From NCBI GenBank assembly GCA_041753395.1, contig JBGSUQ010000029.1, positions 20,482 through 84,481 of the forward strand: a stretch of 64,000 bases of DNA, given 5' to 3'. Of the stretch, positions 3,043 through 52,490 are shown in pieces. This DNA is from Spirochaetota bacterium. GTDB taxonomy: Bacteria > Spirochaetota > UBA4802 > UBA5550. The notes under the pieces were generated by a model, which made no database searches, was not told the origin of the DNA, and saw only the letters and a list, made by a program, of their open reading frames with translations. The translations under genes and the position numbers were made by a program. How positions within the stretch are numbered: position 1 is the stretch's first letter; each line of letters begins with the position of its first letter.

Positions 3043-3049
3043 TATCGTT

Positions 3050-7643: not shown

Positions 7644-7648
7644 ATCCT

Positions 7649-29728: not shown

Positions 29729-29954
29729 TCCTGGTTCCCTCCCCGCCACATCGCTCACGCCCCCTATATCATCAGCCCGCTGCCCGCCATTATCATGACA
29801 AGGCAATCAACTTCCAGAATATTATTCCGCATATGTTCTGATATAATTCTCCATATGAAATGAATTACAGAATCGCATTCCTGAAAGAATATTTAAATAG
29901 CTATGATATTATAATGCGATAAATATGCAAAAAGGATATCGAGGTGCTGATCTT

Positions 29955-35313: not shown

Positions 35314-37455
35314 ATGACATTTCTTGCTCTCACAGGACTGCTGAATTTTCTGGGAAGCGCATCCCTCGCAGCAGTTGTGTTATTCAAGAACCCCCGCGGC
35401 ATACTCAATCGTAATTTTTCATACAACAGCCTGAGCATAGCTTTTTACAGCGCCGGATATTTTGTCTGGCAGCTTAGCTCCACGCCTGAAATGGCCACGA
35501 TATGGTTCAGGGTGCTGTTCACCGGCATTATCCTGATAAACCTCACCTTCCTGTTCTATGTATTTGCCCTTATTGAAAAGCTTAACAGGAGAAAAATTGA
35601 GCTCGCGGTTTATACGGTAATAAACATCATTTTTATCGCTTTAAACCTCTGTTCAATGCTCTACACGAAGCTTGAACCCAGGTTCGGCCTCGGTTTCTGG
35701 CCGGTACCGACGGTTCTCTTCCACATATATCTCGCCTTCTGGATATGGCAGCTCCTGTACGGTTTCATACTCCTGCTCTGGAGCCTGAAAGCTACAACCG
35801 GACGCTTGAGAGAGCAGATCAAATATACGATTGCATCGGGCCTTATCGGTTTTATCGGCGGGGCATCGAACTGGCCGATGTGGTATAAAATCGATTTCCT
35901 CCCATATCCCAACATCCTTATCGTGGTCTACATCGGCCTCATGGGTTTCGCCATCATACGCTACCGGCTCATGGACATCAAGATCGTCCTGACCCGGACC
36001 GGGATCTTCCTGGCAATATACACGCTGGTACTGGGCAGTCCGGTCCTGATCGGGTTGCACACAAATTTCGGCTTCCTATCGTTCGTAACAATGTTCATCC
36101 TCGCCACCATCGGTCCGATCCTATACCGGTTTCTCCTGGGGAAGGCGGAAGATGTCCTGCTTTCCAAACAACGGGAATACCAGAAGGTGCTCAATGAATC
36201 AGTGGTATTTATGCTGCGCGAACACAGCCTTGATCGTCTCCTGAAGCTTATAATTTACGGAATGAAAACCATCATAAAAGTCGACTATGCGGCGATTTTT
36301 CTCAACGACAAGGAACATGAATGTTTCACGCTCAAGGCCGCGAACACGTACCAGGTCATACCTGAAGGCTTCAGCATACCCTGCGGCAATCCAACCATAG
36401 AGCTTCTCATGGAGCACAAGCGCCCCCTGGTCCTGGAGGAGATGTCGCACCTCTTTCACAGCGACACCGATCGTAAAATAAAAATGGTTGTGCCTTCGTT
36501 TTTCGACAACAGGCTCCTGGGATTTCTGCTGCTGGGCGAGAAAGAGAACAAGACCTTCTACACGATGGATGATCTGCAGACCTTTGAATTGCTGTCGCAC
36601 CAGACCGCCATGGCCATAGAAAACTGCCTCTACATGGAAGAACGCAAAAAAACGCAGGAGCGACTGTTCCAGGCTGAAAAACTGGCCTTTATCGGCGGCA
36701 TGGCCGAAGGTGTCGCGCACCAGATACGGAACCGCCTCAACCACTTTTCACTCGGATCGCGGCAGATCCAGCATGAGATCGCCGACTTTCAGAAGCTGCA
36801 TGAAGATATAATCAACCGGAACCAGCCCATCAGGGAAACCTTCGACTCGCTTTATGAAATCAGCGAATCCATAGTCGAAAACGTGATACGCACCAATGCC
36901 GTGATCCAGGGAATACTGAACTATACCATTGCCGATGACAAACGGAACACGTTCTCCGATTTTCCCTTTATGGATGTTGCGGAAGGGGCTATTGATCTTG
37001 CGAAGATAAAGCACGGCATCGACGAGTTGCCCATAAAAACCGAAATAGATCCCGACGCGATGACCTTCGGCGTCATGACACAGCTCATGGAATCCATATA
37101 CAATCTTATTGACAACAGCTATGAAGCCATCGAAGAAAAAAGGAACAGTTTTAAAAGCTCCGAGGAAAGGAAAAATTACGAGCCCCTTATATTAATCAGG
37201 CATACGCAGCAGCCTGACGGTTCGCTTATAGAGATCATTGACAACGGCATCGGGGTAGCCGACGCAGACACCAAAAAAATATTTGCGCCGTATTTCACGA
37301 CCAAGTCTTCATTCAAGTCGCAGTCAGAATCCGGGATAGGTCTTTATGTCGTTCACCGGATCATCGAGGAGAACCACAAGGGCAAAATCTGGTTTAAATC
37401 CGCATACATGAAGGGAACCACCTTCTTCATAAAGCTTCCTATAAAAAACGGCTAG
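35314..37455 (+). CDS. Membrane sensor histidine kinase (7TM-type N-terminus, GAF, HisKA, HATPase)
   Basis: About 9 TM helices, AIIRYRLMDI, GAF, AEGVAHQIRN, NLIDNS, DNGIG, FAPYFTTK, GIGL. Confidence 0.92.
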   Translation: MTFLALTGLLNFLGSASLAAVVLFKNPRGILNRNFSYNSLSIAFYSAGYFVWQLSSTPEMATIWFRVLFTGIILINLTFLFYVFALIEKLNRRKIELAVYTVINIIFIALNLCSMLYTKLEPRFGLGFWPVPTVLFHIYLAFWIWQLLYGFILLLWSLKATTGRLREQIKYTIASGLIGFIGGASNWPMWYKIDFLPYPNILIVVYIGLMGFAIIRYRLMDIKIVLTRTGIFLAIYTLVLGSPVLIGLHTNFGFLSFVTMFILATIGPILYRFLLGKAEDVLLSKQREYQKVLNESVVFMLREHSLDRLLKLIIYGMKTIIKVDYAAIFLNDKEHECFTLKAANTYQVIPEGFSIPCGNPTIELLMEHKRPLVLEEMSHLFHSDTDRKIKMVVPSFFDNRLLGFLLLGEKENKTFYTMDDLQTFELLSHQTAMAIENCLYMEERKKTQERLFQAEKLAFIGGMAEGVAHQIRNRLNHFSLGSRQIQHEIADFQKLHEDIINRNQPIRETFDSLYEISESIVENVIRTNAVIQGILNYTIADDKRNTFSDFPFMDVAEGAIDLAKIKHGIDELPIKTEIDPDAMTFGVMTQLMESIYNLIDNSYEAIEEKRNSFKSSEERKNYEPLILIRHTQQPDGSLIEIIDNGIGVADADTKKIFAPYFTTKSSFKSQSESGIGLYVVHRIIEENHKGKIWFKSAYMKGTTFFIKLPIKNG

Positions 37456-37562
37456 CATTAACCGCAGGAGATGATCATCCTGTTGTTTGTTCATCTCACT
37501 AATGCGGATAAAACGGCATCAGTCGCTCCTTGCAAATCGCAACGAAACCAGGAAGGCCCGCT

Positions 37563-38411
37563 TCACTGCGGCATGACAGCAATTCTACCGTTGACTCGAA
37601 GCTGAACAACATCCATTTTTCCTCCCCTGCGGCAGGCAAGCACCGCCGCCCCCAGGGCGCCCATGACCTGTGGGTCGACAGCAAGGGGCGCGATCTCAAT
37701 CCTGAGCAGGTCACCGAGGGCCTTCATGAGGCCGGCATTCTTGGCACACCCCCCCGTGACAGTAAGTTTTTCCCTGATGCCGATGCGCTTAAGGAGCGTG
37801 AAACAACGCTTGGCAACCGCGGATTGAATGCCGGCGGCCACGTCAGACGGCGGCTGCTTCTTCGCCAGGAGGCTAATCACTTCGCTTTCGGCAAAGACGC
37901 TGCACTGGGCCGTCACGGGAATCACCTTTCTGGCATTCAATGAGAGCCGCGAAAATTCGTCGAGATTCATCCTGAATACGCGGCTCATAGCCTCGAAAAA
38001 GCGGCCAGTCCCGGCGGCGCATTTATCGTTCATGGCGAATTCCAGCACGGACCCGTCCTCTGCGACTGATATCCCCTTCAGGTCCTGGCCGCCGATATCT
38101 ACAATTGTTTTTATCCCCGGATCACAGGAAAAAACACCCATGGCATGACAGCTGATTTCGGATATGTTTTCGTTGGCGAAGGGTACTTCATTCCTGCCAT
38201 AGCCGGTGCCCACCAGGTATGCCAGGTCTCCGCTCCCTTTCAGTTGATCAACCATGGAGCAGGCTCTCTCCATGACAATTCGCGAAGTCTCCTCCGGATC
38301 TATTTCCGAGGGTATGATGACCGAGGCAGCGATGGATCCGTTTTCATCGAGAATGACCGCCTTGCCGGTTGTTGAACCGATGTCGCATCCCCCGTAATAT
38401 TTTTTTCCCAT
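37563..38411 (-). CDS. ATP-dependent acyl-CoA dehydratase activase (HgdC/BcrAD family) #3
   Basis: DIGSTTGK, GTGYGR, EISCH, DIGGQD, NDKCAAGTGRF, CSVFAESEV. Confidence 0.93.
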   Translation of the reverse strand: MGKKYYGGCDIGSTTGKAVILDENGSIAASVIIPSEIDPEETSRIVMERACSMVDQLKGSGDLAYLVGTGYGRNEVPFANENISEISCHAMGVFSCDPGIKTIVDIGGQDLKGISVAEDGSVLEFAMNDKCAAGTGRFFEAMSRVFRMNLDEFSRLSLNARKVIPVTAQCSVFAESEVISLLAKKQPPSDVAAGIQSAVAKRCFTLLKRIGIREKLTVTGGCAKNAGLMKALGDLLRIEIAPLAVDPQVMGALGAAVLACRRGGKMDVVQLRVNGRIAVMPQ

Positions 38412-38459
38412 AAATGGTCTCCGTTGTAATAATAATTGCAATATTGGCTTTCATTATAG

Positions 38460-38523
38460 CCCCCAAAATCCCCCGGAGAGGGACTTTTTCAGCATTTTTC
38501 AACTACCTACCCCTCTGGGGGGG
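38460..38523. repeat. REP-like palindromic element, copy without insert
   Basis: CCCCCAAAATCCCCCGGAGAGGGACTTT...CCCCTCTGGGGGGG; similar to the copies at 48276 and 55382. Confidence 0.6.
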
Positions 38524-38524
38524 A

Positions 38525-39943
38525 TCACTCATTCTCCCCTAGCCTCCCCACCTTCATCACATTCTGCATAAAATGGTCAATCTGGCGGATAATGCCCTCG
38601 CGCGGACAGATTCGGGGATCCGAGAGATCGTACTCGACGATTAGGAGCGGCACCCCGCGTTCGCGGCACGCCTCCCGGAGCATCTGGTTGAGGGCCATGG
38701 TGTTCTTGCAACCGATATGACCCGCCACCCAGACCATGTCAAGGTTGAATCGGTTATATATCCTGAATATGTCATCAATGTAATTCTCCGCCGGCCCCCT
38801 GGTGTGGCGCGCCATAGGGCCCTGCATGATGATCTTACCCAGGTCGCGCAGGATCGTATCCGGCGTTGTGGTATCGATCAGGGGCTGAGAATTGTAGGTC
38901 ATACTGTCTATTACCAGTGTCACGCCATACGCGTCCTCGGCCCATTGGAAAAGATCGGAGAAATGAAGAAACGGAGGGTTCCAGAGCACCGCGCGGAATC
39001 GCTCATTAGGCACCGCCGGGACTCCCATTTCGAGGTTGCGCCTGGCCATATCGGCAAGGCGCTGGAAATAGCGGGTCGCCACCGGGTTACCCGGATCGAT
39101 ATTAAAGGCCCAGAGATGGCCCAGGTACACCGGCTCGGCGGCTAGCGGCGCCGGACGGGTGCTGATCATCTCCCAGAGCTCAATCTCCAGTTCGGCCATG
39201 CGGTTTCGCTCCTCGCATATCCGGCGCAGGCGGTCCCAATCCATTCTGCCTGACGTGTTCTCCTCGAGCCATGCGATCATTCTCTTCAGTTCTCCGGCAA
39301 AATATTCCGCGGCCCGTTCATCATAGAAATTAAAGGGAATGTCAAGTCTGAATATGGACGCGTCATTCCATCGCCGCGTGATCTCATAACCCGTCATGTT
39401 CCCGTCGCAGGGCAGGTTCGAGCTGACTATGACGGAGGCGGGAGGCATCTCGCCGGTAAGCACGACCCCCAGTGTCATCTTGACATGACTGCATATATCC
39501 GGAGGGACACCCTCGTTCTCGCACCGGTCGATATAGCGCTCAGCCGCGTGCGTGTCAAGGATGGGAAGAAGTATCGACAGGATTTCAGCCGGCCACACGA
39601 AAAGGCCCATGGCGGTGGATATCTCCGGTGGCACCATCTCCTGATGCATTATGAAATTACTTTTACGATCCAATGTATGCGCGAGAACATCCGCCATTCG
39701 AGTGGAAATGAAATAAACCAACAATTCGTTGGCTTCACGGAAGAGACCGGTCCTCCCCTTCGCGAAGCGTCCCATCAGGAACGGCGACTTGAGGAGTATG
39801 AGAATCCATGGATACCGCTTGATATCACGGATCAGTGCGACAGGGCCGCGCCGCAGGGCAAGGAACGCAAAGCTAATCCATGTAAGAGCTAAGTATTTAG
39901 CATGTATCAGATAATCACCAATGGAAGGCCTGCTGTTGTTCAT
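38525..39943 (-). CDS. 2-hydroxyacyl-CoA dehydratase / BCR-family subunit (alpha/BzdO-like) #2
   Basis: PDICSHVK, NLPCDG, FRLDIP, HIGCKN, DLSDPR. Confidence 0.85.
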   Translation of the reverse strand: MNNSRPSIGDYLIHAKYLALTWISFAFLALRRGPVALIRDIKRYPWILILLKSPFLMGRFAKGRTGLFREANELLVYFISTRMADVLAHTLDRKSNFIMHQEMVPPEISTAMGLFVWPAEILSILLPILDTHAAERYIDRCENEGVPPDICSHVKMTLGVVLTGEMPPASVIVSSNLPCDGNMTGYEITRRWNDASIFRLDIPFNFYDERAAEYFAGELKRMIAWLEENTSGRMDWDRLRRICEERNRMAELEIELWEMISTRPAPLAAEPVYLGHLWAFNIDPGNPVATRYFQRLADMARRNLEMGVPAVPNERFRAVLWNPPFLHFSDLFQWAEDAYGVTLVIDSMTYNSQPLIDTTTPDTILRDLGKIIMQGPMARHTRGPAENYIDDIFRIYNRFNLDMVWVAGHIGCKNTMALNQMLREACRERGVPLLIVEYDLSDPRICPREGIIRQIDHFMQNVMKVGRLGENE

Positions 39944-39958
39944 AGTGTTTAACCCCGG

Positions 39959-41089
39959 TTATTTACCCATGCTTTCTATGAAGGCCTGCACGCGCGTGCG
40001 CAGCTGCCCCTCGCCGGCATGCCGGTATTCCCGCTCCAGGCGTAGAACCGGTATCCCGACGGACCGGAGTTCTGACGTAAGCGTGCTCCCTTCAACACCC
40101 CAGGTATCGCAGAATTTTATCGCCTGCAGAATGACACCGTCGGCGCGGTATTCCCGCGCCGTGTCCCGGATGGCCGCGGCGCGCTCGTCGAATTCATCCA
40201 TCATTCTGGGGCACAGGACCTTGAAAAGCGTGTGCTCCGCCACGGCCCGCAGGGGATTGCCGCTTTCCGATACCGGGTCCAGCCACGGAAGCGAACCGGT
40301 GCAGAATCGGTCAGCTACCACGAGGCCGCCCTGGGATTCTATGACATCTATGAACGACGGGTCATCCAGCTCGCCGCCGGCCACCATGATCCTGGCCCGG
40401 TACGGGCCGATCCCTCCCCGCTCAACCGCTTTCCGGTGAAAATCTTCAACCAGTGGCAGAAGAAGGTCCTTCGGAGTTACCATGGAAGCAATCATGATAC
40501 GATGAAATTCGCCTCCGGTAATGAGGGGCGGGTCCTGCTTTCTCAGGTCGCCGATGGATCGAAGAACACGCGCGAAGGCGTTGCGGCTGCGGATAGCTGC
40601 GGCGAGATCATCACCCGCCGCACTGACGCCGAAGTGCTCCGACAACTTTTCGGCGAGAACCGTCAGTTCTTCCGTAAACCAGTCAAGTGCCGGCTCGCCG
40701 CGCTTATGGGGAACGTCAAGAGTATGCAAGAAGGCAGGCTTGCGCAGATAGTCCAGGTTGTCCATCAGCCGGCGCATATGGTCGCAGTTGGCGGTGAACA
40801 CAATCCCGCCCAGGTTATCATAGGCGCCGCCAAGGGCGAACTCAAGAAGGCTCTTGGTATAGGAACAGATAACGTTTGACATGTACGTGTCCGCCAGCTC
40901 GGTACCGGCAATCCCGGGCGCTCGGAGACGTACCGGGAACAACCTGCCCGCCGAGAGCATTGTTTCCGGGACATAGCTGCAGGTGTACCCGACAGGGACG
41001 CGCCGCTCATCCCTTGCCTGCTCGGCAAGGCGGTTCAGCGGCTCAGCCAGAAGGTCGTCAAACAGTGAAAGATCTGCAGACTGCTTCAT
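39959..41089 (-). CDS. 2-hydroxyacyl-CoA dehydratase / BCR-family subunit (beta/BzdN-like) #2
   Basis: GYTCSYVPE, VICSYTK, NCDHMRR, DRFCTG, LCPRM, KFCD, GQLRTRVQAF; ATGA overlap with the CooC gene. Confidence 0.88.
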   Translation of the reverse strand: MKQSADLSLFDDLLAEPLNRLAEQARDERRVPVGYTCSYVPETMLSAGRLFPVRLRAPGIAGTELADTYMSNVICSYTKSLLEFALGGAYDNLGGIVFTANCDHMRRLMDNLDYLRKPAFLHTLDVPHKRGEPALDWFTEELTVLAEKLSEHFGVSAAGDDLAAAIRSRNAFARVLRSIGDLRKQDPPLITGGEFHRIMIASMVTPKDLLLPLVEDFHRKAVERGGIGPYRARIMVAGGELDDPSFIDVIESQGGLVVADRFCTGSLPWLDPVSESGNPLRAVAEHTLFKVLCPRMMDEFDERAAAIRDTAREYRADGVILQAIKFCDTWGVEGSTLTSELRSVGIPVLRLEREYRHAGEGQLRTRVQAFIESMGK

Positions 41090-41886
41090 GGCCTCACTCC
41101 TTCTGTAAATGCGTCTTCCGCGGCCGGCAGCAGGCCGAAGCACGAGATACATCGGCGCACGCCTGTCCGCGCAGGGCATTCCGGCAGGTCAAGTAAACTC
41201 CTTCCCTCGATGTCAAAGGCGCGTATATGGTCGTCTTCAGGCAGTGTGCCGAGAAGGGCCAATCCCGGCGGCGGTGTTATGCCGCGATTCTCTCCGGCGC
41301 GGACGCGGTTGACGATAAGGCCGCACCGCTCGTACCCGACCGATTCCCCGGCCACTTCCAGGATACTTCCCGCAACGGCAAGACCCTTGGCCGACTGGTC
41401 CGAAACAAGGAGCAGATGGCTCACCCGCTCCATAACGCGGCGGTTCACCTGCTCGATGCCGGCCTCCCCGTCTATAACAACGTAATTAAAATTGGATGAT
41501 ATCGATTCTATCACATCCTTTAAAAAATCGTTCACCTGGCAGTAACATCCTTCCTGCTCGGGCCTCCCGATGGCGAGGAAGGCCAGGTTCTTCTTCTCCT
41601 CCAGTGCGGCCAGCACCTCGTAATCAAGGGCCGACGCGAGCTGCTTCATATCCTCGCGGGCCCCTTCTTTCACCCTGGAAATCAGGTCGTTCCGAATGTC
41701 ATCAACGGTCCTCCGGGCCTGGAAGCCGAGGGCCAGGGCAAGGCCCACTGCCGGGTCCGCGTCGATGGCCAGTACTTTCTTCGAAGGATCTTCGGCAAGC
41801 ATGGAGGCCACGATGGCGCTGATGGAGGTCTTGCCCACCCCTCCCTTGCCGCAAACCGCGATGATGACCGTGTCAGTTTCTTTCAT
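41086..41886 (-). CDS. cooC: CooC/AcsF-type Ni-insertion ATPase
   Basis: GKGGVGKT, IDADP, GRPEQEGCYC, DGEAGIEQVNRR. Confidence 0.88.
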   Translation of the reverse strand: MKETDTVIIAVCGKGGVGKTSISAIVASMLAEDPSKKVLAIDADPAVGLALALGFQARRTVDDIRNDLISRVKEGAREDMKQLASALDYEVLAALEEKKNLAFLAIGRPEQEGCYCQVNDFLKDVIESISSNFNYVVIDGEAGIEQVNRRVMERVSHLLLVSDQSAKGLAVAGSILEVAGESVGYERCGLIVNRVRAGENRGITPPPGLALLGTLPEDDHIRAFDIEGRSLLDLPECPARTGVRRCISCFGLLPAAEDAFTEGVRP

Positions 41887-42622
41887 AGCCCGCCTTCTCC
41901 TTTCCGCGCATAGCGTCCCGCATCGACCTGAGCTCGGACACCTCGCCGCAGACGTCGGTAAAATCGCAGGTACCGCAGTCGAAGGACAGCTCCTTCGCCA
42001 TCTTGTTCATGGCGCCGATAAGCCGAACCGCCCGTTCGCCGACATGCTGCAGGGAGCGGACGTCCTCCGGGGACGATGTTACGATAAGCATCTCCACACC
42101 CCGCACATACTCCAGCTTCCGGTACCTTTCCATGAGCGCAGCGGCAAGCACTTCCAGGGAAAAGCCCTCCGCTATCGCCTGCCTGCTTATCCTGCTCCAT
42201 TCCCGCATGTACTGGGACACGGCCCGCATCATGTAGCCTTTAAGGTTCACGTCATAACGCGCCAGTTCGATCTCCCGGTGCCGGTCATAGCAATTGTTCT
42301 CGGTGAAACCGTCAACGTGAAGAATGACCGCCCTGCCCAGGGGAAGGCTGGCCCCGGCACTGACGGAAACATCCGGCCCGATGCGGGTGATCATTCCGTC
42401 CCGGACAAGGTCCGCATTCCCGGTCCAGACAAGAAATGACGCTGATTCGTCCCGGGGATTGCCGAGCTCAACAGCGGTATCGCATTTCAGCACGATGTTG
42501 CCCCGCTCACCCATGGGCCACGGCCGGTGAGCCGCGGCGATTTCGGCAAAGCCGCGGGGCGACACCTTCATCCCGTCCATCCAGGACCTGAGATCATGTA
42601 TGACTTCTTCAAACAATTTCAT
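41873..42622 (-). CDS. Truncated acetyl-CoA synthase (AcsB/CdhC) middle-domain homologue
   Basis: VELG..DGMITRIGPDV..LPLG..WSRISRQAIAEGFS..VEMLIVT..DCGTC....VC parallels AcsB DGKIEVIGPDI..LPLG..WLRVSKDAVAKGF..SCVLC..HVC (recalled sequence). Confidence 0.72.
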   Translation of the reverse strand: MKLFEEVIHDLRSWMDGMKVSPRGFAEIAAAHRPWPMGERGNIVLKCDTAVELGNPRDESASFLVWTGNADLVRDGMITRIGPDVSVSAGASLPLGRAVILHVDGFTENNCYDRHREIELARYDVNLKGYMMRAVSQYMREWSRISRQAIAEGFSLEVLAAALMERYRKLEYVRGVEMLIVTSSPEDVRSLQHVGERAVRLIGAMNKMAKELSFDCGTCDFTDVCGEVSELRSMRDAMRGKEKAGYERN

Positions 42623-42628
42623 TCAGCT

Positions 42629-43447
42629 CTACTCTACCAGGGCCCCTTCTTTCCGATGTTCCGTGGCAGGGGTGCCCCGCGCAGCATCCATCGCCATCAA
42701 GGCTGCTCCGATGGCGCCATTTATCTGGGGATTGTCTACCCTCAGGAGGTCTGTCCCAAGGGCGCTTTTAAGCGCCTCGAACATCCCCGCGTTCCTGGCA
42801 ACACCGCCCGTCATGACAATGTCCTTTTCAATCGTAATGCTTTTCGCCAGGGCCGCTGCCCTGTTGGCCACGGCATGATGAAGGGCGCGTATGATGTCGG
42901 AGATTTCGGCCCCATCGTTAACAAGGGATATGATCTCGGTCTCGGCAAAGACCACGCACTGGTTGGAGAGGGTTATCTTCTTCGCAGATTTCAACGAGAT
43001 ATCACCCAGGTCATCCAGTTTTATTTCTAGGGCCTCGGCTATGACTTCCAGAAACCTCCCGGTCCCGGAGGCGCACTTGTCGTTATAGATAAAGCGCGCA
43101 ACCGCGCCCGATGCGTCAACCTTGATGGCCTTGCAGTCCGGCCCGCCGATATCGATGACCGTTCTGGCCGTGGGCGCCTGCCATACCGCACCCCGGCCGT
43201 GGCACGCGATTTCCGATTCAACACTGTTGACGAAGGAGATATGCTTCCTTCCATATCCCGTGCCGACGCACCAGGATATATCTGTCATGGCCACGCCAGC
43301 ATTGTTCAGAGCCTGGTCCATCACCGCCCTGGCCGATTCCTCCGGCGACCGCTTCGCCAGGGCCATTGCAGATGCTACAATGCCATTTTCGTCAATAATG
43401 ACCGCTTTGGCGGTCAGAGAGCCAACATCGCATCCCGCAACAATCAT
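42629..43447 (-). CDS. Acyl-CoA dehydratase activase #2
   Basis: GCDVGSLTAK, GTGYGR, DIGGPDCK, NDKCASGTGRF, CVVFAETE; ATGA overlap with upstream gene. Confidence 0.92.
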   Translation of the reverse strand: MIVAGCDVGSLTAKAVIIDENGIVASAMALAKRSPEESARAVMDQALNNAGVAMTDISWCVGTGYGRKHISFVNSVESEIACHGRGAVWQAPTARTVIDIGGPDCKAIKVDASGAVARFIYNDKCASGTGRFLEVIAEALEIKLDDLGDISLKSAKKITLSNQCVVFAETEIISLVNDGAEISDIIRALHHAVANRAAALAKSITIEKDIVMTGGVARNAGMFEALKSALGTDLLRVDNPQINGAIGAALMAMDAARGTPATEHRKEGALVE

Positions 43448-44235
43448 GATTTTCCTCCTTGCGCCTTTTCCATCGCGATAAGGGCGGCGCCGATGGCGCC
43501 GGCGAGCTGCGGGTCCGCCCTGGTGACGCGCTTGATCCGGAGCCCCAGCAGTTTCTCCAGCGCCGAAACCACGCCGGCGTTCTTGGCCACGCCGCCGGTC
43601 ATGACCACGTCCCGCTCGAACCCGATGTTGTTGACGATAATAGACATGCGGCTGGCCATGGCGCTGTTGATGCCGGCCGCGATGTCCGCCACTGGGACCC
43701 CGCTGTTCAGGTACTGGATCACGTCCGCCTGGGCCCACACCGTGCAGGCCGACGCCAGGGTGATGGCATTCTTCGACAAGGCCGACAGCGCGCCGAGATC
43801 GCCAAGCTCCACATGGAGCACCTTTGCCATGACCTCGAGAAACCGGCCCGTGCCGGAAGCGCACTTGTCGTTGGCCGTAAACTTGATCATGTTCCCCTGC
43901 TCGTCAATGCGCATGGCCTTGCAGTCCTGCCCGCCGATGTCGATGACGGTCCGTGCCGACGGCACCAGCCACTGTGCGCCTTTGCCGTGGCAGGCTATCT
44001 CGGTCACCGCTTCCTGGACAAAGGATATCCTGTCGCGGCCGTACCCGGTCCCCACGCAGAAGCCTATATCCTGCATGGAAAGCCCGGTTTTGGAAAGGGC
44101 CTGGCCCATTGCCGCGTCCGCCGAATCACCCGGCCTCGCCTTCGATTTTATTATTACCGATTCGACCATCTTTCCATCTTTCATAATCACCGCTTTTGAC
44201 GTGAGAGACCCCACGTCGCATCCAGCCACCATCAT
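43444..44235 (-). CDS. Acyl-CoA dehydratase activase #1
   Basis: GCDVGSLTSK, GTGYGR, DIGGQDCK, NDKCASGTGRF, CTVWAQADV; ATGA overlap. Confidence 0.92.
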   Translation of the reverse strand: MMVAGCDVGSLTSKAVIMKDGKMVESVIIKSKARPGDSADAAMGQALSKTGLSMQDIGFCVGTGYGRDRISFVQEAVTEIACHGKGAQWLVPSARTVIDIGGQDCKAMRIDEQGNMIKFTANDKCASGTGRFLEVMAKVLHVELGDLGALSALSKNAITLASACTVWAQADVIQYLNSGVPVADIAAGINSAMASRMSIIVNNIGFERDVVMTGGVAKNAGVVSALEKLLGLRIKRVTRADPQLAGAIGAALIAMEKAQGGKS

Positions 44236-45641
44236 GGCAACAGCCTCCTTACCCGTAAAAATTCTTCCAGTCGGTCCTGTGAAGCCTCCCATGATTCTAC
44301 CCGGTCGTCAAAGGCGTCGCCGTACATGATGAATGTCGGGAACCCCGCCTGTTCCGTGTCCCGGGCCAGAAGCTTCACCATGCCCCAGGTGTTGCGGCAC
44401 CCCGGCGTGCCGTTGTATATGATGCAGTCGGCGCTGTACATCTTCGCCAGGGACAGCGTGTCCTGGAGCCACATGTCCGGCGCATCATAGGGCCCGCGGA
44501 TCGATTTGATCATGGGCATGCGCGAATTGTGATCGGCCATGGTCCTGATCATCGAGTCGAGATCCTTCATGTCGAAGGAGTACGCCGATGCCTCGGTGCG
44601 GTATTCCTTCACATGGGGCGCCGTTTTTGCCCAGGAGCGGCTGAGGATGTTCCCCTGGTAGCAGATGCCGTTTCTGTCCAGGAAATCCCAGAGCCTCAGT
44701 CCGTTCGTGTAGTGGTCGATATAGCAGAAAAAGGCACGCATCTTCTCTACGCCGCCGGTGAGGCCGGAAATACCCCTGGACGCGTTGTCGGACGCCACCT
44801 TGAGCATCGACTCCAGCACCACCGTGCACTCCTTCATGCCCGAGAAAAGGAATCGCGTTGCGTACAGCATCATGTTGAAGGTCACCGGAAGCGGATTGGG
44901 CACGATTCGGGCAAGGTCTTCCAGCTCCGCCACGATCTCCTCCTGCTTCTCGATCTCGCGAAGCACCACCCGAAGCTTGTCAATATCAAGCTTTCTCCCG
45001 GTGTTCTTTTCAATAAAGGCTATGAGGGCCTTGAAATCAGAATTATGGTATTTGTCGGTCCTGGGGTCCACCAGTACCGGCGGCATGTCGAGTGAAAAAA
45101 ACGGCTTCTTGAGATACGCCGCGGCGAAGGCGAAGGCGTTGGCGTTGGTATCACATACGCCGGGGGTATCGGTCAGGACCATGTCCACTTCAGCGCCCAG
45201 GCCGGCAAGAAACGCCCCGAGGGTTCCGCGCTGCGATGAGCATGACGTCTCCGTGTATCCCACCTCATTGCAGTAGTCCAGGAATTCCGCTGTTCCCCGT
45301 TTGTACGCAAAGGTCTGGGCGACCGAAACAACCTCAAGGCAAATCGGATAAACGTCCATGGCATAGAGTATGCCCGGGGAAAAACAGAACGTTGTTATGG
45401 CATTATGAAAACCCCTGTCCCGGGCCGTTATGTAATTCTCAAAATATTTCGTTATGCATTCAAGGAACAGCTGGCCCGGTTCCCCCGCATCAAGCACCGC
45501 TGTGACAGTGCCGTTGAAATAGGGAATATATTTCAGCATGGTCCGGAATTCCTTCTCGGAGCCGTTTCTCAGTTTCGCTGCAGCAGCGAATGTGGTCCAG
45601 AGCATCGAATCAAACTTGTATTCCTTTAATTCAGGTCTCAT
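44232..45641 (-). CDS. 2-hydroxyacyl-CoA dehydratase / BCR-family subunit (alpha/BzdO-like) #1
   Basis: ETSCSSQRG, PGVCD, FSLDMP, PGCRN, DAFDDR. Confidence 0.85.
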   Translation of the reverse strand: MRPELKEYKFDSMLWTTFAAAAKLRNGSEKEFRTMLKYIPYFNGTVTAVLDAGEPGQLFLECITKYFENYITARDRGFHNAITTFCFSPGILYAMDVYPICLEVVSVAQTFAYKRGTAEFLDYCNEVGYTETSCSSQRGTLGAFLAGLGAEVDMVLTDTPGVCDTNANAFAFAAAYLKKPFFSLDMPPVLVDPRTDKYHNSDFKALIAFIEKNTGRKLDIDKLRVVLREIEKQEEIVAELEDLARIVPNPLPVTFNMMLYATRFLFSGMKECTVVLESMLKVASDNASRGISGLTGGVEKMRAFFCYIDHYTNGLRLWDFLDRNGICYQGNILSRSWAKTAPHVKEYRTEASAYSFDMKDLDSMIRTMADHNSRMPMIKSIRGPYDAPDMWLQDTLSLAKMYSADCIIYNGTPGCRNTWGMVKLLARDTEQAGFPTFIMYGDAFDDRVESWEASQDRLEEFLRVRRLLP

Positions 45642-46789
45642 GCCGTTTTCCTCCTCTGCCCGATCCGCTCAAGAAACGCATCCACCCGCATTTTCAACCG
45701 GCCCGTTTCAACCAGGGGCCCATATTCGCGCTCGATTTTCAGGCAAGGTATGCCGGCCTCCTCGAGGTCGCGCTCAAAGAGTCCGTTCTCCGAACCATGA
45801 AGGTCGCAGAAGCGGATATTCTGCAAAATTACACCATCTATTTTAGCCTTTTCAGCCTTATCGGTAAGCATCTTCAGCCGGCCCGCATATTCGCCGTACA
45901 TGCGCGGACACTCGTTTTTGGCAAGGTACCGCATCGCTAGAGCCTGGATCGGCTCGTCCATCTCATCAACACGGTCAACATGGAAACGCGATCCGAAACA
46001 GAGGTTGTCAGCCACCACAATGGCCCTCTCCCCCTCGATCAATCGAATCAGGTTAACGTCATCGCTGGCGCTGCCCACGAGCATGAGTCGCACTTTGCCC
46101 TGCATCTCACCCTTGCTTTTTTGCATGTTGCCGATCAGGCCTTCCAGCAATTCGACATACACGTCGCGGGGCATCGTGGTCCCCGCGAGAATCACCGCCA
46201 GGGCCTCAGTCCCCGTTATTGCTGGTTTGTCGGCAATTCTCAGCCTGTCAAATTGCTCAAGGAGGTCGCGGCTTTTATTAAAGAGCTGTATTGTTTCCCG
46301 CAGCTTATCCTCATTAATTGAAACGCCAAAATGGCCCTCGACCGCCACTTTCAGCCGGAGGATCTCGTCGATAAACCATTTCACGGTGTAATCCGCGAAT
46401 TTGTGGGGCACGCCGAAATGAAAGAAGAACTTCGGTAGTACCCCAGTGATGTCTCCCCCAGCCTTGCGCCAGCACTCGTCGAGCCGCCGCATCGAATCGC
46501 ATCCCGGCGTGATGATGGCCCCGTCGAGAAAATCGAATTTGCCCTCGCCCGCCAGCTGCAGCATCGCCTTCGGAAGGCTGCAGATGAAGGGGCCGAAATA
46601 GGTGTCGCCTATGGTCGCCTCTGTCGCGCCGAACCCCCGAATACGGTACGGCAGGATCCCGGCCGCGTACAGGAGCTCGTCCGGAACGTACGAGCAGGTG
46701 TAACCCACCACTTTTTTACCGGCTTGCTTCCACTCACGGACATAGTCGTTATTGAGCGAGATTGCCGCTTCCATAAAAACAGTGTTCAT
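45638..46789 (-). CDS. 2-hydroxyacyl-CoA dehydratase / BCR-family subunit (beta/BzdN-like) #1
   Basis: GYTCSYVPDE, FICSLPK, GCDSMRR, DNLCFG, ECPRM, RFCD, GRLKMRVDAF; ATGA overlaps at both ends. Confidence 0.88.
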   Translation of the reverse strand: MNTVFMEAAISLNNDYVREWKQAGKKVVGYTCSYVPDELLYAAGILPYRIRGFGATEATIGDTYFGPFICSLPKAMLQLAGEGKFDFLDGAIITPGCDSMRRLDECWRKAGGDITGVLPKFFFHFGVPHKFADYTVKWFIDEILRLKVAVEGHFGVSINEDKLRETIQLFNKSRDLLEQFDRLRIADKPAITGTEALAVILAGTTMPRDVYVELLEGLIGNMQKSKGEMQGKVRLMLVGSASDDVNLIRLIEGERAIVVADNLCFGSRFHVDRVDEMDEPIQALAMRYLAKNECPRMYGEYAGRLKMLTDKAEKAKIDGVILQNIRFCDLHGSENGLFERDLEEAGIPCLKIEREYGPLVETGRLKMRVDAFLERIGQRRKTA

Positions 46790-48273
46790 TCTGTTGCCTC
46801 CGTGTGGTGAAAAACGTTCCTGAGCTTCTCGCATGCCTTTTTCATCTCATCTGACATCTCGCCGTCGGGAGCCATGAGCTCGGCAATGCCGCTGATGACC
46901 GGCGGCATTATCTCCATAGCGACCGGCTTCATCGATTGGACAACATCATCAACGAGCCACCCCGCAGTACCGGCCACCGCCTGCTCGTCAAGGGCGTTGA
47001 AAAACTGCGATAGGAAGTTTTTTATCGTCCCCGGCGACAGCTGCCGTACCTGGTTAAAAAGATTGCAGATGCTGCTCGTGGCGGCCGCCATCTCCTGGGC
47101 GTCCAGCTCGCTCATCCCCCGGGCGAATTCCCTCGCTATGTCCTCATCGGAGAATACTCTCTCGAAGGTATCGGCCTTCCGGCTCCAGGCCCGTACCCAG
47201 GACGCCAGCGACCTGAAATGGCTCTGGAAGAAATCAGCGGCGATTTCGGGATTCTCCTCAAACACTTCTATGACGGAAACCTTCACCAGGTCCCTGATTT
47301 CCCGCAGCATCCCCTGCGACTTAAGCAGGAGCGCGATATCAATCTCGGCAAGGGTCTCGGCAGCCAGGCGCGACACCGCCGCCGGAAAAGCATGGCTCCC
47401 CCTGTCGCCGACAAGGGCGCTCCCCGTGTGAAGCTTTCTTACAATTTCACTAACCTGGTTTACGAGCATACCGATGCTTTTTCCGTCCATGTCGCGCACC
47501 AGCGACATTATTACATCGGCCAGAAGATCCGGGGGCAGTTCATTAACCGGCCCGATGGTTTTCACTGCGGACCGGACAGTGATGTTCCCCAAGGCCGGAA
47601 TAAGCGACAGCAGGCACACCATTTTTGCCGGATATTGCCACAACTCCTCATTGATCATTCCTGCCACGGCAATGAAGCCGTCAGCCGAACCGTCCACCGC
47701 TTCCTTGATTTCCCCGAAATCAATTTCACTGATAAGTGACCGTACTTTGGGACGAAGCGCTTCGGTAAGGAATCCGGGCTCGTTCCGGTGCAGGTTTGCG
47801 CTTTTCGTCAGGTTGGTGACTATTTCGCCTATACCCCCCAGATCCGTATTATCAATTATTGATTTCAGGTGGCAGCGGCGCTCTTCCGCCGGCATATCCG
47901 AAAGACCCTTCGTAAAAGCGCCCAGACCGGCTATAACGGCATTGATGATCTCCGGCATCTGCGCGGAGGCCTGACGCACGAATTCCGGGTCCCCGCAGGT
48001 TTCGATTACCGGGCTCCCGGCGTAACCGCTCCGGGGAGCAAATCCCTTTGCCAGTACCCTCCCGGCGACACCCGCAAGTACCTTCTTTATCCTGCTCTTT
48101 CCTGCCCACACGTCAAGGACCTCGGGCAGCGCCGCGCGCATGACCTGACGGAATTCATCGGTCCGGGCGAAGGATTTTGCGAAACTGCCGATAAAGCCCT
48201 GACCCGCGTTCCATTGTGCGCCAATATCCCGGGCGAAGGTAGTATCTTTGCTGTTCATCTGTTGATCCTCCAT
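46786..48273 (-). CDS. Hypothetical all-helical protein with degenerate repeats, coupled to the dehydratase operon
   Basis: 495-aa ORF; its stop overlaps the next start (ATGA); recurring hydrophobic-D motifs (NTDLGGIG, EIDFGEIK, DMDGKSIG, ELDAQEMA). Confidence 0.75.
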   Translation of the reverse strand: MEDQQMNSKDTTFARDIGAQWNAGQGFIGSFAKSFARTDEFRQVMRAALPEVLDVWAGKSRIKKVLAGVAGRVLAKGFAPRSGYAGSPVIETCGDPEFVRQASAQMPEIINAVIAGLGAFTKGLSDMPAEERRCHLKSIIDNTDLGGIGEIVTNLTKSANLHRNEPGFLTEALRPKVRSLISEIDFGEIKEAVDGSADGFIAVAGMINEELWQYPAKMVCLLSLIPALGNITVRSAVKTIGPVNELPPDLLADVIMSLVRDMDGKSIGMLVNQVSEIVRKLHTGSALVGDRGSHAFPAAVSRLAAETLAEIDIALLLKSQGMLREIRDLVKVSVIEVFEENPEIAADFFQSHFRSLASWVRAWSRKADTFERVFSDEDIAREFARGMSELDAQEMAAATSSICNLFNQVRQLSPGTIKNFLSQFFNALDEQAVAGTAGWLVDDVVQSMKPVAMEIMPPVISGIAELMAPDGEMSDEMKKACEKLRNVFHHTEATE

Positions 48274-48275
48274 AG

Positions 48276-48370
48276 CCCCCTAAATCCCACTTCGACAGGC
48301 TCAGTGCGGCGCCCGGAGGGGGACTTTATTATACCAGCAGTAAAGCCCCCCGCTGGGGGGTTGGGGGGGC
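48276..48370. repeat. Composite REP-like element, full-length copy
   Basis: CCCCCTAAATCCC[ACTTCGACAGGCTCAGTGCGGCG]CCCGGAGGGGGACTTT...AAAGCCCCCCGCTGGGGGGTTGGGGGGG. Confidence 0.75.
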
Positions 48371-48398
48371 ATACTGAAACAGTCCCATGGCAATAACA

Positions 48399-49742
48399 TC
48401 AATGTTCGACTGCGTAGGCCGGCTGTTTCGCCCTGGAAGCGCCCTGCTTTTCCGCTGCAAGGTGTTTCGCGAGACGCTTGCCCAGGCAGACCAGGGTCAA
48501 TACCGGCGGAAGTCCGAAGGGCTCGGGAACGACCGAGCAGTCGCACACGTACAGGTTTTCGTATCCTTTCAACTTGAGATTGGAATCAAGCATGTGGCCA
48601 ATTCGTATTGTCCCGCCCGGGTGCGCCGCCAGTTTCCAGGTCTTGTAGATCCCCGTGGCGCCGGCATTGAGGAGTATGTTCTTCGCCATGTCGTAGCCCT
48701 TCCGGAGCTTTTCCCTGTCGGCGGGCGTAAGTCGTTTCCGCACCCCGCCGCGGTCCGAGAGATGCCCTGATAGATCGTCCCGTATTTTGATCATGATGCG
48801 CAGGGTCTTCCTGGTTTCAAGGAGCCTCCAGAAGCGGAAGGCCGAGATTGTGAAGGCCTGATCGAGTAAAAAAGGAACCGCCATGTCGGTCATCACAATC
48901 CCCTCGTTACGCATGACGCAGCCGGCAGTCATGGGGATCTCGTCTTTCCTTTTTTTCACGTTCTTGACCTTTCCGCAAACGGTGATGAGGGGATCGAAGA
49001 AATAGTTATACCCGGCGTTCCGTATCCCTGATTTGCGCAGTACCACCGGCGACCCAATGCCGCCGGCTGCCACGATCACCGTTTTGGCCATCACCTGCAA
49101 GGTGCGCCCCTTGTATTTCATTTCAACGCCAGTTGCTTTCCTGTTTTCGAAGAGTATCTTTTTTACCTTCGCCTTATTCAGCAGCACCGCACCCCGCGTG
49201 ACGGCCTCGTCAACGTGCATCTTGGCGCTCCACTTCACCTCATGGCGGTCGCCGTAATAACCGAAGCCGTACCCCGGGCGCCAGCGGTCCTGGTACATAA
49301 ACTTGTCGAGCTTTTTCCAGTCATACCCGAGGGCACGGGCACTTTCCATCATGCTCCTGGCCATCGGAGTCACCATTTCATCTTTAAGGGGTGCTATAGG
49401 GAGCTCCTTGCGAACCTCCTTTTCAGCCTCGGTCAGGTCAATGCCGTATTTCTTGAAAGCTTCATGGGCCACCGGGAATGCAGTCCCATAATAAAACACC
49501 GAGCTGCCGCCTGTGGTGAGACCGCGCACCATGCCGAGGAGCTCCGGCGTCAGCAGCAGGCTTTTAAAGGGAAACATCATGTAGGGCAGCGCCCAGAGAA
49601 AGGTCCCCTTTATCTTATTTCCGCCACTCCCTTCGAGGATGAGGACTTTTTTGCCTTTAGCGGCCAGGTCCCTGGCAACGCTTGCTCCCCCGGCGCCGGA
49701 CCCGACAACAATAACGTCATACTTCTCTTTCATTATCTCCAT
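48399..49742 (-). CDS. GMC-family FAD oxidoreductase
   Basis: VVGSGAGG, GGSS, AAGGIGSP, AHPGGT, NLYVCDCSV.P..G.PP.LT; GGAGG RBS. Confidence 0.9.
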   Translation of the reverse strand: MEIMKEKYDVIVVGSGAGGASVARDLAAKGKKVLILEGSGGNKIKGTFLWALPYMMFPFKSLLLTPELLGMVRGLTTGGSSVFYYGTAFPVAHEAFKKYGIDLTEAEKEVRKELPIAPLKDEMVTPMARSMMESARALGYDWKKLDKFMYQDRWRPGYGFGYYGDRHEVKWSAKMHVDEAVTRGAVLLNKAKVKKILFENRKATGVEMKYKGRTLQVMAKTVIVAAGGIGSPVVLRKSGIRNAGYNYFFDPLITVCGKVKNVKKRKDEIPMTAGCVMRNEGIVMTDMAVPFLLDQAFTISAFRFWRLLETRKTLRIMIKIRDDLSGHLSDRGGVRKRLTPADREKLRKGYDMAKNILLNAGATGIYKTWKLAAHPGGTIRIGHMLDSNLKLKGYENLYVCDCSVVPEPFGLPPVLTLVCLGKRLAKHLAAEKQGASRAKQPAYAVEH

Positions 49743-50020
49743 ATCTATCCTCCCATTATAATATACGTTAATTATATTGCAGTGCCTAACTTCGGTAATG
49801 CAATTGTACTCTGACTCCCGGCAACCGATCCAATAATTTGGACTTTTTCCATTTATGTATGATCCCATTCTCAAATGCCACATATTGAGTGATATTTGAT
49901 AATGGTATTATTAAAATAATTCCACAGATTGATTCTGGTAATAAGGAACATACCATTATTATAAATACCGGTGAATCAGCCTGAATGATATAATTATAAG
50001 ATATTAATAAAAAAAAGTCG

Positions 50021-50087: not shown

Positions 50088-51170
50088 CTACTTGTTCGTA
50101 TTTCTTCTATAACGGGCTGGTGATATGCCGATGAATTTGGTAAAGGCTTCATAAAATGCTGATTTGCTGTTAAAACCCACTGAATAGCAGATAGATGTTA
50201 TGGAACGATCCGGCTGGGTCTGCATGAGGTTGACCGCCTCATCCACGCGGTACCGGTTTATATAATAATTAAAACTGATACTCAGGTGTTTATTCAGGAA
50301 TTCCGACAGCTGGTGGGGCGATATGGAAAGCATGTCTGCAAGGCGCTTCAGGTTAAGGTCTTCGTCGCAATAGACTTTCTCCACCTTCATGAGATCGTCA
50401 AGGCGGCTCTTCATGGCCTCCACATCCAGGCCCTTGATCAGGGAGCGTTCGTATATATTCTTTCTGACCACGCTGGTGATAAGCTCGATCAGTTCGGGTT
50501 TGAGGTTTCCCACAAGAAATATGAACAAGAACGGGAATATCATAAGGATCATGATAATGCGCCCCAGGGTAATATTACGTGAAATAAAGGCGTACAGCAA
50601 TAGAATCGCGATAAGGAGTACCATAACAATGAATACCAGTGCTACCTGGTTGACTTTAACACTGAACTTCCTCTTTATCAGTGATATAAAATCCTCTTTA
50701 ATCAGAATGTATATATTATATATGATGAATATTATCGCGGCGGACATCATATAATAATAATTACCGGCAATAATAAATAAGCGTAATTCATGCCATGGAC
50801 CGCTCTCCGTCGAAGCCGTCAGGTACATGAAAATATCGATACAGGAGGATATACAGGCAGGCAGCAGGTGAAAGGCGTGCCTGAAACCGATAGTAAAATC
50901 CTTATAAAACAGCTTTTTATAGAAAAAGAAGATGGAAGGGCCCAGTAAAAACGCCACTGCCTGGCCACGCCAGAGTGACAATTCATGGTTCGGGACAGCA
51001 TACACACCTAAATAATACTGCTGAAACCCTATTAAGGAAATGCAGGAAAAAAAAATGAACAGCCAGATGTGTTTGCTGTCATGGAATATTTGCGAGAACT
51101 GGGCAATGGCCATGGTCAGGGCAAGGCTGCCGCCGAAAAAGAGCAGATGATTTAAAATTGTATCCACCAT
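50088..51170 (-). CDS. Membrane-anchored AraC-family regulator
   Basis: TM N-terminus (LLGPSIFF, HLLP); DEDLNL, PHQLSEFLN, INRYRVDEA, VGFNSKSAFY. Confidence 0.92.
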   Translation of the reverse strand: MVDTILNHLLFFGGSLALTMAIAQFSQIFHDSKHIWLFIFFSCISLIGFQQYYLGVYAVPNHELSLWRGQAVAFLLGPSIFFFYKKLFYKDFTIGFRHAFHLLPACISSCIDIFMYLTASTESGPWHELRLFIIAGNYYYMMSAAIIFIIYNIYILIKEDFISLIKRKFSVKVNQVALVFIVMVLLIAILLLYAFISRNITLGRIIMILMIFPFLFIFLVGNLKPELIELITSVVRKNIYERSLIKGLDVEAMKSRLDDLMKVEKVYCDEDLNLKRLADMLSISPHQLSEFLNKHLSISFNYYINRYRVDEAVNLMQTQPDRSITSICYSVGFNSKSAFYEAFTKFIGISPARYRRNTNK

Positions 51171-52487: not shown

Positions 52488-52490
52488 AAA

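Follow-up and report, generated by a model that had tools for sequence, protein, structure and literature searches.

Among the most difficult biological reductions are those catalysed by ATP-driven 'archerase' enzymes, whose known substrates amount, to our knowledge, to a handful: benzoyl-coenzyme A (CoA) analogues, 2-hydroxyacyl-CoAs and, for the double-cubane protein DCCP, small molecules. Here we describe an archerase operon of eleven co-oriented genes that fill positions 37563-49742, on the minus strand, of a 64,000-nucleotide stretch of contig JBGSUQ010000029.1 from a Spirochaetota bacterium (the whole stretch is called the window below). The genes encode, in this order, a GMC-family oxidoreductase (GMC), an all-helical protein (HEL), a beta-type and an alpha-type subunit of the HGD-D family (B1 and A1), two ASKHA ATPases (ACT1 and ACT2), a protein related to the middle domain of acetyl-CoA synthase (ACS; CDHC-like), a CooC-type ATPase (COOC), and a second block made up of a beta-type subunit, an alpha-type subunit and one ATPase (B2, A2 and ACT3). 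This gene list, with its families, order and shared orientation, had been proposed in an initial annotation and was confirmed by the list of open reading frames (ORFs) and by Pfam and NCBIfam matches. The operon probably encodes one conserved, uncharacterised ATP-driven low-potential reductase of the superfamily that includes benzoyl-CoA reductases (BCRs), 2-hydroxyacyl-CoA dehydratases and double-cubane proteins, acting on a CoA thioester other than benzoyl-CoA. Judged by sequence, it represents a new and widespread branch of archerase-dependent enzymes and has three partners present in no described member: the ACS A2-domain protein, the CooC-type ATPase and HEL. We know of no bzd cluster that has HEL, the CDHC-like protein, the CooC-type ATPase or GMC as a part.

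The closest described systems are the class I BCR BzdNOPQ (structures 8s02, 8s1t and 8s2r; PMC11971306), DCCP with its reductase DCCP-R (6eno and 7yyl; PMC7317905), the dehydratase HadBC with its activator HadI (3o3m), and ACS with the maturation ATPases AcsF/CooC. In the available parts of the first two reports, on which the comparisons with these enzymes below draw, the [8Fe-9S] double cubane of BzdN and of DCCP is ligated by six cysteines (PMC11971306, PMC7317905), and Cys95, Cys128 and Cys380 of BzdO are the ligands of an open-site catalytic [4Fe-4S] cluster (PMC11971306). DCCP is described as a homodimer of one HGD-D protein with a seven-Cys motif (PMC7317905). Testable membership features were drawn up for BCR, 2-hydroxyacyl-CoA dehydratase, DCCP and ACS, and by these the operon belongs to none of the four. 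In a literature search of full texts, supplements excepted, no paper describing the gene combination was found. The systems of PMC10418091 and PMC10134865 (isoprene reductase with HypAB) were considered and, in the available parts of these papers, are different ones.

The distribution of the gene set was analysed by scanning a profile of the CDHC-like family against one genome per prokaryotic species. The scan yielded 137 tblastn-confirmed stretches, 80 of which were kept with their flanks; all ORFs of the kept loci were scored against the eleven proteins of the window and labelled by their best phmmer match among them. Classified by their record titles, the 80 loci comprise 28 of Spirochaetota type, 47 of Desulfobacterota type (including metagenome-assembled genomes (MAGs) of Smithella, Desulfosudis and Desulfocicer), two from Bacillota, and one each from Myxococcota, Bacteriovoracaceae and 'Proteobacteria'. 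In the 60 loci with at least 5.7 kb upstream of the CDHC-like gene, HEL was found in 56, B1 and A1 in 58 each, and ACT1 and ACT2 in 57 each, on the same strand and nearly always in the same order. COOC follows the CDHC-like gene in 67 of 75 loci, GMC heads the cluster in 42 of the 56 loci with at least 7.3 kb upstream, and block 2 (B2, A2 and ACT3) is present in 34 of 61. The core of the system is formed by HEL, B1, A1, ACT1, ACT2, CDHC-like and COOC, with GMC as an accessory gene and block 2 as an optional part. Because the same order recurs in dozens of unrelated genomes, the eleven-gene arrangement lies far above chance, and the chance adjacency of two operons is ruled out by the synteny counts. 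The AcsB-like and CooC genes do not divide two enzymes; together with HEL they mark one conserved system.

A paralogous cluster is located on another contig of the same genome (L084, G000:C22:96000-111000, genes at 536-9425). It contains, in order, an AraC-family gene, a CrtI/CrtD-like flavoprotein, a beta subunit, an alpha subunit, one ATPase, an SCP2-like ORF (a weak match, E 9e-4), GMC and CDHC-like, without a CooC-type gene. The locus L056 of a relative resembles this arrangement and has CooC in addition. This independent re-association is the strongest argument that the beta/alpha/ATPase module, GMC and the CDHC-like protein work together.

The surroundings of the core vary between lineages. 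In 22 loci the cluster contains or adjoins a gene for a GltD-like Fe-S flavoprotein (~670 aa), often between ACT2 and the CDHC-like gene, an aldehyde:ferredoxin oxidoreductase (AOR) gene lies downstream in seven loci, and a flavodoxin-ferredoxin fusion follows COOC in three Smithella-type loci. Since these redox genes occur in the cluster of other lineages, net reduction rather than mere activation appears to be catalysed. Smithella-type loci have two acyl-CoA dehydrogenase genes and two small uncharacterised genes in place of GMC; an enoyl-CoA hydratase is close by in seven loci, and a thioesterase and an ADP-forming acyl-CoA synthetase recur in the flanks. Regulator genes are frequent, with a TetR gene between GMC and HEL in many Spirochaetota loci and GntR regulators in Desulfobacterales loci. 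Eight orthologues could be matched by exact sequence; all come from MAGs and are named 'hypothetical', '2-hydroxyacyl-CoA dehydratase' or 'CO dehydrogenase/acetyl-CoA synthase beta subunit'. The carriers are uncultured anaerobes of digesters, sediments and hydrocarbon-affected sites. In the window, the G+C content is 53-60% across the operon (38000-50000) against 42-44% in the immediate flanks (32-36 kb and 50-52 kb), and the A1 orthologues of Smithella, Bacillota and Myxococcota score against the A1 of the window as high as many Spirochaetota ones do. Both observations fit a horizontal spread of the cluster.

B1 (45638..46789; HGD-D 285.6 bits) and B2 (39959..41089; HGD-D 288.6 bits) are both predicted carriers of an [8Fe-9S] double cubane, to judge from their ligands. 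All 62 B1 sequences have the cysteines C32, C70, C97, C264, C294 and C328, each of which aligns to a cysteine of BzdN, whereas HadC has Cys at four of these positions. Among solved structures, B1 is about equally close to BzdN (8s02_B, E 1.2e-42) and HadC (3o3m_B, E 1.6e-40). The corresponding B2 residues, C37, C75, C102, C263, C293 and C327, likewise occur in all 41 sequences, and B2 matches DCCP (7yyl/6eno, E 2e-25) and BzdN (1.8e-24) ahead of HadC (9.8e-20). B1 and B2 share 37% identity and A1 and A2 22%, and each HGD-D subunit is closer to its counterpart in the other block than to any solved protein. By these similarities, the two blocks are paralogues within one new branch, which NCBIfam and PDB scores set apart.

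None of the subunits reaches an NCBIfam equivalog cut-off, and all are far below. For the Bzd/Bcr models the scores are 158.7 bits against 453.8 (BzdN), 46.2 against 448.6 (BzdO) and 139.8 against 421 (BcrC). With the HadC and HadB models, B1 scores 153.4 bits against 700 and A1 34.1 against 750, while B2 and A2 reach 112.6 and 25.8 bits. The double-cubane model NF040772 is the best NCBIfam match of B1, B2 and A2; B1 and B2 score 171 bits with it, and its cut-off is 350.

The three ATPases are encoded at 43444..44235 (ACT1; BcrAD_BadFG 190.3 bits), 42629..43447 (ACT2; 191.1 bits) and 37563..38411 (ACT3; 175.5 bits). All score above the 125.4-bit cut-off of TIGR00241 (241, 238.7 and 214.8 bits, respectively), and none reaches the BzdQ, BcrA or BcrD models (ACT1 has 196.9 bits with BzdQ, whose cut-off is 380.2). 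The cysteines that bridge the cluster are invariant in ACT1 (C125 and C164, 68 of 68 sequences) and ACT2 (C126 and C165, 71 of 71), and ACT3 likewise keeps both, invariant among its orthologues. ACT1 and ACT2 are 52% identical, and ACT3 is 41-43% identical to either. In a tree of 175 sequences, the ATPases form three clades holding 35 of 35 ACT3 (support 1.0), 71 of 71 ACT2 (0.86) and 66 of 68 ACT1 sequences (0.83). The separate ACT1 and ACT2 clades suggest that the duplication is old and fixed, as an obligate heterodimer would predict, although the argument is partly circular. The proposal that block 1 has a BzdNOPQ-like four-subunit layout with two different ATPase genes held up, with ACT1 and ACT2 forming separate conserved clades across phyla.

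The same proposal gave block 2 a dehydratase architecture, and this part did not stand. In its full form, it would make block 1 an ATP-consuming reductase and block 2 an enzyme of the 2-hydroxyacyl-CoA dehydratase type, for which catalytic activation by a homodimeric activase suffices, with no net reduction. Like HadBC/HadI, block 2 pairs alpha and beta HGD-D subunits with an ASKHA activator, which is encoded by a single gene as for HgdC, HadI and FldI (block 1 has two), and A2 has the three-Cys open-site cluster also present in HadB (PMC11971306). Furthermore, 27 of 61 loci do without block 2, which would suit an additional step of a pathway. However, B2 keeps the six double-cubane cysteines in all 41 sequences, and therefore block 2 is not HAD-like in its clusters; HadC has Cys at four of the six positions as aligned to B1. 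B2 also ranks DCCP and BzdN above HadC in the PDB and scores 171 bits with the double-cubane model against 113 with HadC. DCCP itself, a reductase, has a homodimeric ATPase as its partner (PMC7317905), and a dehydratase thus cannot be deduced from a single ATPase gene. Neither a CoA-transferase nor a 2-hydroxyacid dehydrogenase gene is linked to the cluster. We regard a split into a reductase and a dehydratase as unlikely.

For A1 (44232..45641; HGD-D 150.8 bits), BzdO is the only clear solved relative (E 8e-10), and A2 (38525..39943; HGD-D 192.9 bits) likewise matches BzdO best (E 1.1e-9), followed by MbdO (1e-8). The A1 cysteines C134, C163 and C415, invariant in 71 of 71 sequences, align to BzdO C95, C128 and C380, and an open-site [4Fe-4S] cluster is predicted for this subunit. 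In A2, C151, C179 and C412 (40 of 40) align to Cys95, Cys128 or the adjacent Cys129, and Cys380. The invariant E103 of A1 corresponds to BzdO Glu65, whereas its acid/base partner His131 is replaced by an invariant N166 in A1 and by Asn in A2, so that the Glu65/His131 pair is not preserved. In the weak pairwise alignment (E 8e-10), the pocket residues Tyr97, Gln274 and Trp46 of BzdO correspond to S136, D309 and F85 of A1, and Tyr298 falls in a gap.

These features bear on whether the operon encodes an ordinary aryl-CoA reductase of class I, with benzoyl-CoA or one of its substituted or polycyclic analogues as substrate and the additional genes as accessories. The order beta, alpha, ATPase, ATPase mirrors bzdNOPQ, block 1 combines two HGD-D subunits carrying six-Cys and three-Cys ligand sets with two different ASKHA ATPases as in the Bzd enzyme (PMC11971306), and among solved structures B1 and A1 match BzdN and BzdO best, with the equivalent of Glu65 invariant. 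The acyl-CoA dehydrogenases of Smithella-type loci weakly resemble glutaryl-CoA and cyclohexanecarbonyl-CoA dehydrogenases, and seven loci have an enoyl-CoA hydratase nearby. However, the BzdN, BzdO, BcrC and BzdQ scores are far under the equivalog cut-offs, B1 resembles HadC and BzdN to about the same degree, His131 of BzdO is replaced in A1, and in the weak alignment Tyr97, Gln274 and Tyr298 have no conserved counterpart there. The absence of benzoate-CoA ligase and dch/had/oah genes next to the operon, remarked upon in the initial annotation, was verified from the Pfam matches of the window. Benzoyl-CoA is therefore an unlikely substrate, given the apparently altered pocket residues and the replaced His131, the scores far below cut-off and the missing downstream pathway genes, and an ordinary aryl-CoA reductase seems improbable.

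The prominence of the double-cubane model also raises the question of a DCCP-like reductase of a small non-CoA molecule, next to which the CDHC-like and CooC-type proteins would build a separate metal site. This model tops the NCBIfam matches of B1, B2 and A2, and the operon shares with DCCP the six cluster cysteines of both beta subunits, an ASKHA reductase partner and, in block 2, a single ATPase gene. DCCP reduces small molecules and is thought not to accept CoA esters (PMC7317905), the thioester-binding residues of BzdO appear not to be kept, and a CooC-type ATPase suggests metal insertion. In contrast to the homodimeric DCCP, the enzymes of the operon are heteromeric alpha/beta pairs with an open-site cluster of the BzdO/HadB type, and their beta subunits lack the seventh Cys, as judged by the spacing of the conserved cysteines relative to the motif in the available part of PMC7317905. 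Moreover, the CDHC-like protein keeps a CoA-stacking Trp, acyl-CoA dehydrogenase, hydratase and thioesterase genes occur in the flanks, and the window harbours a bona fide DCCP elsewhere (28126-29397, plus strand; NF040772 468 bits against 350, HGD-D 390 bits). A DCCP-like enzyme for a non-CoA substrate is consequently very improbable. The DCCP gene has no adjacent ATPase gene and is followed 0.5 kb downstream by a B12-binding radical SAM gene (29925-31277, plus strand).

The CDHC-like protein (41873..42622; 249 aa) matches CdhC (PF03598) with 41.7 bits at a cut-off of 24. Its family includes 235 relatives of similar length at E<=0.001, which are named 'hypothetical' or 'CO dehydrogenase/acetyl-CoA synthase beta subunit'. 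Residues ~40-195 align to the ACS middle domain, residues ~328-484 of the Carboxydothermus hydrogenoformans enzyme. The AlphaFold2 (AF2) model of the CDHC-like protein has a pLDDT of 84.6, low only beyond residue 210, and gave 23 Foldseek matches at E<=0.001, every listed one an ACS chain, with TM-scores on the query of 0.54-0.59 except for 0.52 (2z8y_O) and 0.44 (9g7i_A). W142, C216, C219 and C225 are invariant. An invariant REWSR motif aligns to W-V/L-R-I/V-S of ACS, and its Trp corresponds by offset, good to about one residue, to Trp405 of the Clostridium autoethanogenum enzyme, a residue that, according to the available part of 10.1101/2024.08.05.606187, stacks against the adenine of acetyl-CoA bound at the A2 surface near a Lys/Arg patch. 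The protein thus has the fold of the A2 domain and, with the Trp assigned by offset, its CoA-stacking residue.

The remainder of an ACS is missing. Complete ACS proteins have ~700-740 residues, whereas the CDHC-like protein lacks the A1 domain, nearly all of A3, the fourth cubane Cys and the Cys-Gly-Cys, and it scores 37.6 bits with the NCBIfam ACS equivalog, whose cut-off is 800. Its C216-x2-C219-x5-C225 motif sits where the A-cluster C-x2-C-x8-C begins: it starts 74 residues past the Trp, and the protein ends 24 residues after C225. A full-length ACS is encoded in the same genome (L083, G000:C8:19291-22665; a 742-aa open frame with a complete A-cluster motif and Cys-Gly-Cys), and there C-x2-C-x8-C-x9-C starts 79 residues past the equivalent Trp, with Cys-Gly-Cys ~90 residues further on. 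As one of the four cubane ligands and the nickel site, Cys-Gly-Cys, are missing, the CDHC-like protein lacks the A-cluster of ACS; by these motifs it is not an acetyl-CoA synthase and resembles a CoA-binding module whose Fe-S site is incomplete. In one relative (P0110), an N-terminal two-cluster ferredoxin domain is fused to the CdhC domain, which suggests that the CDHC-like protein lies in an electron path. No long fused forms were found at E<=1e-10 among proteins of 437-2000 aa, which is weak evidence. A predicted complex of CDHC-like with A1 scored 0.02, which gives no verdict and counts neither way.

COOC (41086..41886; 266 aa) matches the MinD/ParA/ArsA-type P-loop families of Pfam, and its best PDB match is CooC1 (3kje, E 1.1e-13), with the GKGGVGKT P-loop aligned and CYC placed on CYC. 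All 70 sequences keep the two cysteines of this Cys-x-Cys motif, C114 and C116; the protein therefore has both the deviant Walker A and the CXC motif of CooC/AcsF-type ATPases, and its gene stands beside that of the A2-domain protein as AcsF/CooC accompanies ACS.

There is a slim chance of a different chemistry, in which the CDHC-like protein, matured by the CooC-type ATPase, would use a truncated A-cluster scaffold to hold a new metal-substituted Fe-S site. The archerase modules would supply this site with electrons of very low potential, and the system would convert acyl groups larger than acetyl by ACS-like organometallic chemistry at C-C or C-S bonds. The missing ligands could be provided by a partner such as the Cys-Asp-Cys of GMC, and the reaction might be, for example, a reductive decarbonylation, a carbonylation or the formation of a thioester. 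If true, this would be a new enzyme class joining two of the most unusual families of anaerobic metalloenzymes.

HEL (46786..48273; 495 aa) lies outside known families, with no Pfam or NCBIfam match. Its AF2 model consists entirely of helices (mean pLDDT 79.8) and had no Foldseek match in the PDB at E<=0.001; a wide VIA structure search returned long-helix look-alikes only (best Z 4.9), and matches in the Atlas were confined to hypothetical clusters, apart from a weak DUF445 lead at 0.84. In a library of 1.84 billion proteins, HEL has 446 representative relatives at E<=0.001 (listed lengths 275-529 aa), none of them an informative fusion. GMC (48399..49742; 448 aa) is a member of the flavin adenine dinucleotide (FAD)-dependent GMC family by both of its domains (GMC_oxred_N 70.2 bits against 23, GMC_oxred_C 41.8 against 24.6) and is far under every NCBIfam equivalog, for instance that of choline dehydrogenase (70 against 605 bits). 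Residues 400-402 in the C-terminal FAD-binding strand are Cys-Asp-Cys and are kept among orthologues (42 of 42 and 40 of 42). Typical GMC enzymes have Val/Ala-Asp-Ala/Ser at this position.

From the gene content, conservation, ligand patterns and fold relationships described above we infer an electron path, by analogy with BzdNOPQ and DCCP, as well as CoA binding, a substrate class and subunit contacts for the proposed single reductase system. Reduced ferredoxin or flavodoxin would reduce the [4Fe-4S] cluster that bridges the ATPase dimer, and ATP hydrolysis would push the electron uphill into the six-Cys [8Fe-9S] cluster of the beta subunit. The electron would then move on to the three-Cys open-site [4Fe-4S] cluster of the alpha subunit, where the substrate is reduced, with Glu103 of A1, the counterpart of BzdO Glu65, taking part in proton delivery. 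The CDHC-like protein may bind the CoA moiety and carry an Fe-S site, possibly metal-substituted, that is matured by the CooC-type ATPase, and it could act as a substrate-handling or electron-relay subunit. The two modules might catalyse two successive hard redox steps on the same skeleton, and the flavoprotein (GMC, or the acyl-CoA dehydrogenase pair in other lineages) could provide a flanking dehydrogenation.

The substrate is most likely the CoA thioester of a carboxylic acid other than benzoate. A CoA thioester is favoured because of the CoA-stacking Trp of the CDHC-like protein, the acyl-CoA dehydrogenases at the GMC position in Smithella-type loci and the CoA enzymes in the flanks. The acid is possibly hydrophobic. 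Divergent from the AraC-family gene upstream of the operon, the window contains a TRAP transporter (51543-55366, plus strand) made up of a TatT-type T-component (PF16811, 304.8 bits), a fused DctQM and the binding protein DctP (52491-53486), and DctP genes also occur near the cluster in L019 and L064. TPR-protein-associated (TPAT) TRAP transporters have a proposed preference for hydrophobic ligands, and the transporter is a possible importer of the operon's substrate. The suggestion of a lipid- or steroid-derived thioester, made when the sequence was first annotated, is compatible with these weak context hints.

Several observations weigh against parts of this interpretation. The sequencing runs that contain the sequence number four and are all DNA, one of them perhaps the source itself, with no RNA run listed. 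COOC is absent from eight of 75 loci, and the ATPase clades were tested with labels that are themselves best matches to the proteins of the window. CoA binding by the CDHC-like protein is indicated by one aligned Trp with flanking Arg residues, the Trp405 equivalence being set by offset, and the residues Tyr97, Gln274 and Tyr298, which contact the thioester oxygen in BzdO, are not kept in A1, within the weak alignment mentioned above. The flanks of the kept loci vary in content by lineage and show no consistent linkage of a CoA ligase or transferase to the cluster. A non-CoA substrate, as proposed for DCCP in the available part of PMC7317905, keeps a small probability. The hints of a hydrophobic substrate are weak and confined to this lineage (the TPAT-type TRAP transporter, and the SCP2-like match of E 9e-4 and CrtI-like gene in L084). 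On balance, a single CoA-thioester reductase system remains the probable reading.

Direct reading of the gene junctions verified the five ATGA start/stop overlaps noted earlier, which join HEL to B1, B1 to A1, A1 to ACT1, ACT1 to ACT2, and COOC to B2. The CDHC-like and COOC genes overlap by 14 nucleotides, and the remaining junctions have gaps of 6, 15, 113 and 125 nucleotides. The longest ORFs overrun the likely starts of GMC, B1, ACT1, ACT2, B2 and ACT3; the starts chosen were those that produce the overlaps, are preceded by GGAGG-like sites, which are found ahead of most starts in the operon, and agree with orthologues. A tentative promoter-like site lies 5' of the GMC gene (49760..49788, minus strand; 9/12 matches in a consensus scan), a scan that overall returned modestly more sites than shuffled sequences (17 against 10.0 +/- 3.2). 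A tentative terminator-like hairpin with a T-run lies 3' of ACT3 (37448..37465, minus strand) and is favoured by position alone, as such sites are as frequent as in shuffles (14 against 13.6). The AraC-family gene at 50088..51170 (minus strand; HTH_18 72.6 bits) is a probable regulator in this lineage; an AraC gene likewise precedes the operon in L001-L003, the closest relatives, as well as the paralogous cluster L084.

In the whole genome there are 12 HGD-D and 10 BcrAD_BadFG matches. Among them are a further HGD-D pair just beyond the end of the window (C29:86103-88379) and, at C29:281637-283112 and C17:218491-220140, two fusions of ~1430 aa in which the activase domain is doubled. Elsewhere in the window, positions 7649-8458 (minus strand) encode a bacterial ERG2/sigma-1-receptor-like protein (PF04622, 187.8 bits, E 2e-55), which is unusual in a genome of Spirochaetota type. 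The best-known members of this family are eukaryotic sterol C-8 isomerases. At 60224-62631 (minus strand), a sulfotransferase gene (PF13469, 161 bits) neighbours genes for a DUF1214 protein and a short-chain dehydrogenase; it has no relation to the operon.

The compact gene set makes the system expressible and opens the purpose of double-cubane clusters to test. It bears on whether an ACS domain was recruited outside the Wood-Ljungdahl pathway, and on which recalcitrant compound the carrier organisms transform.

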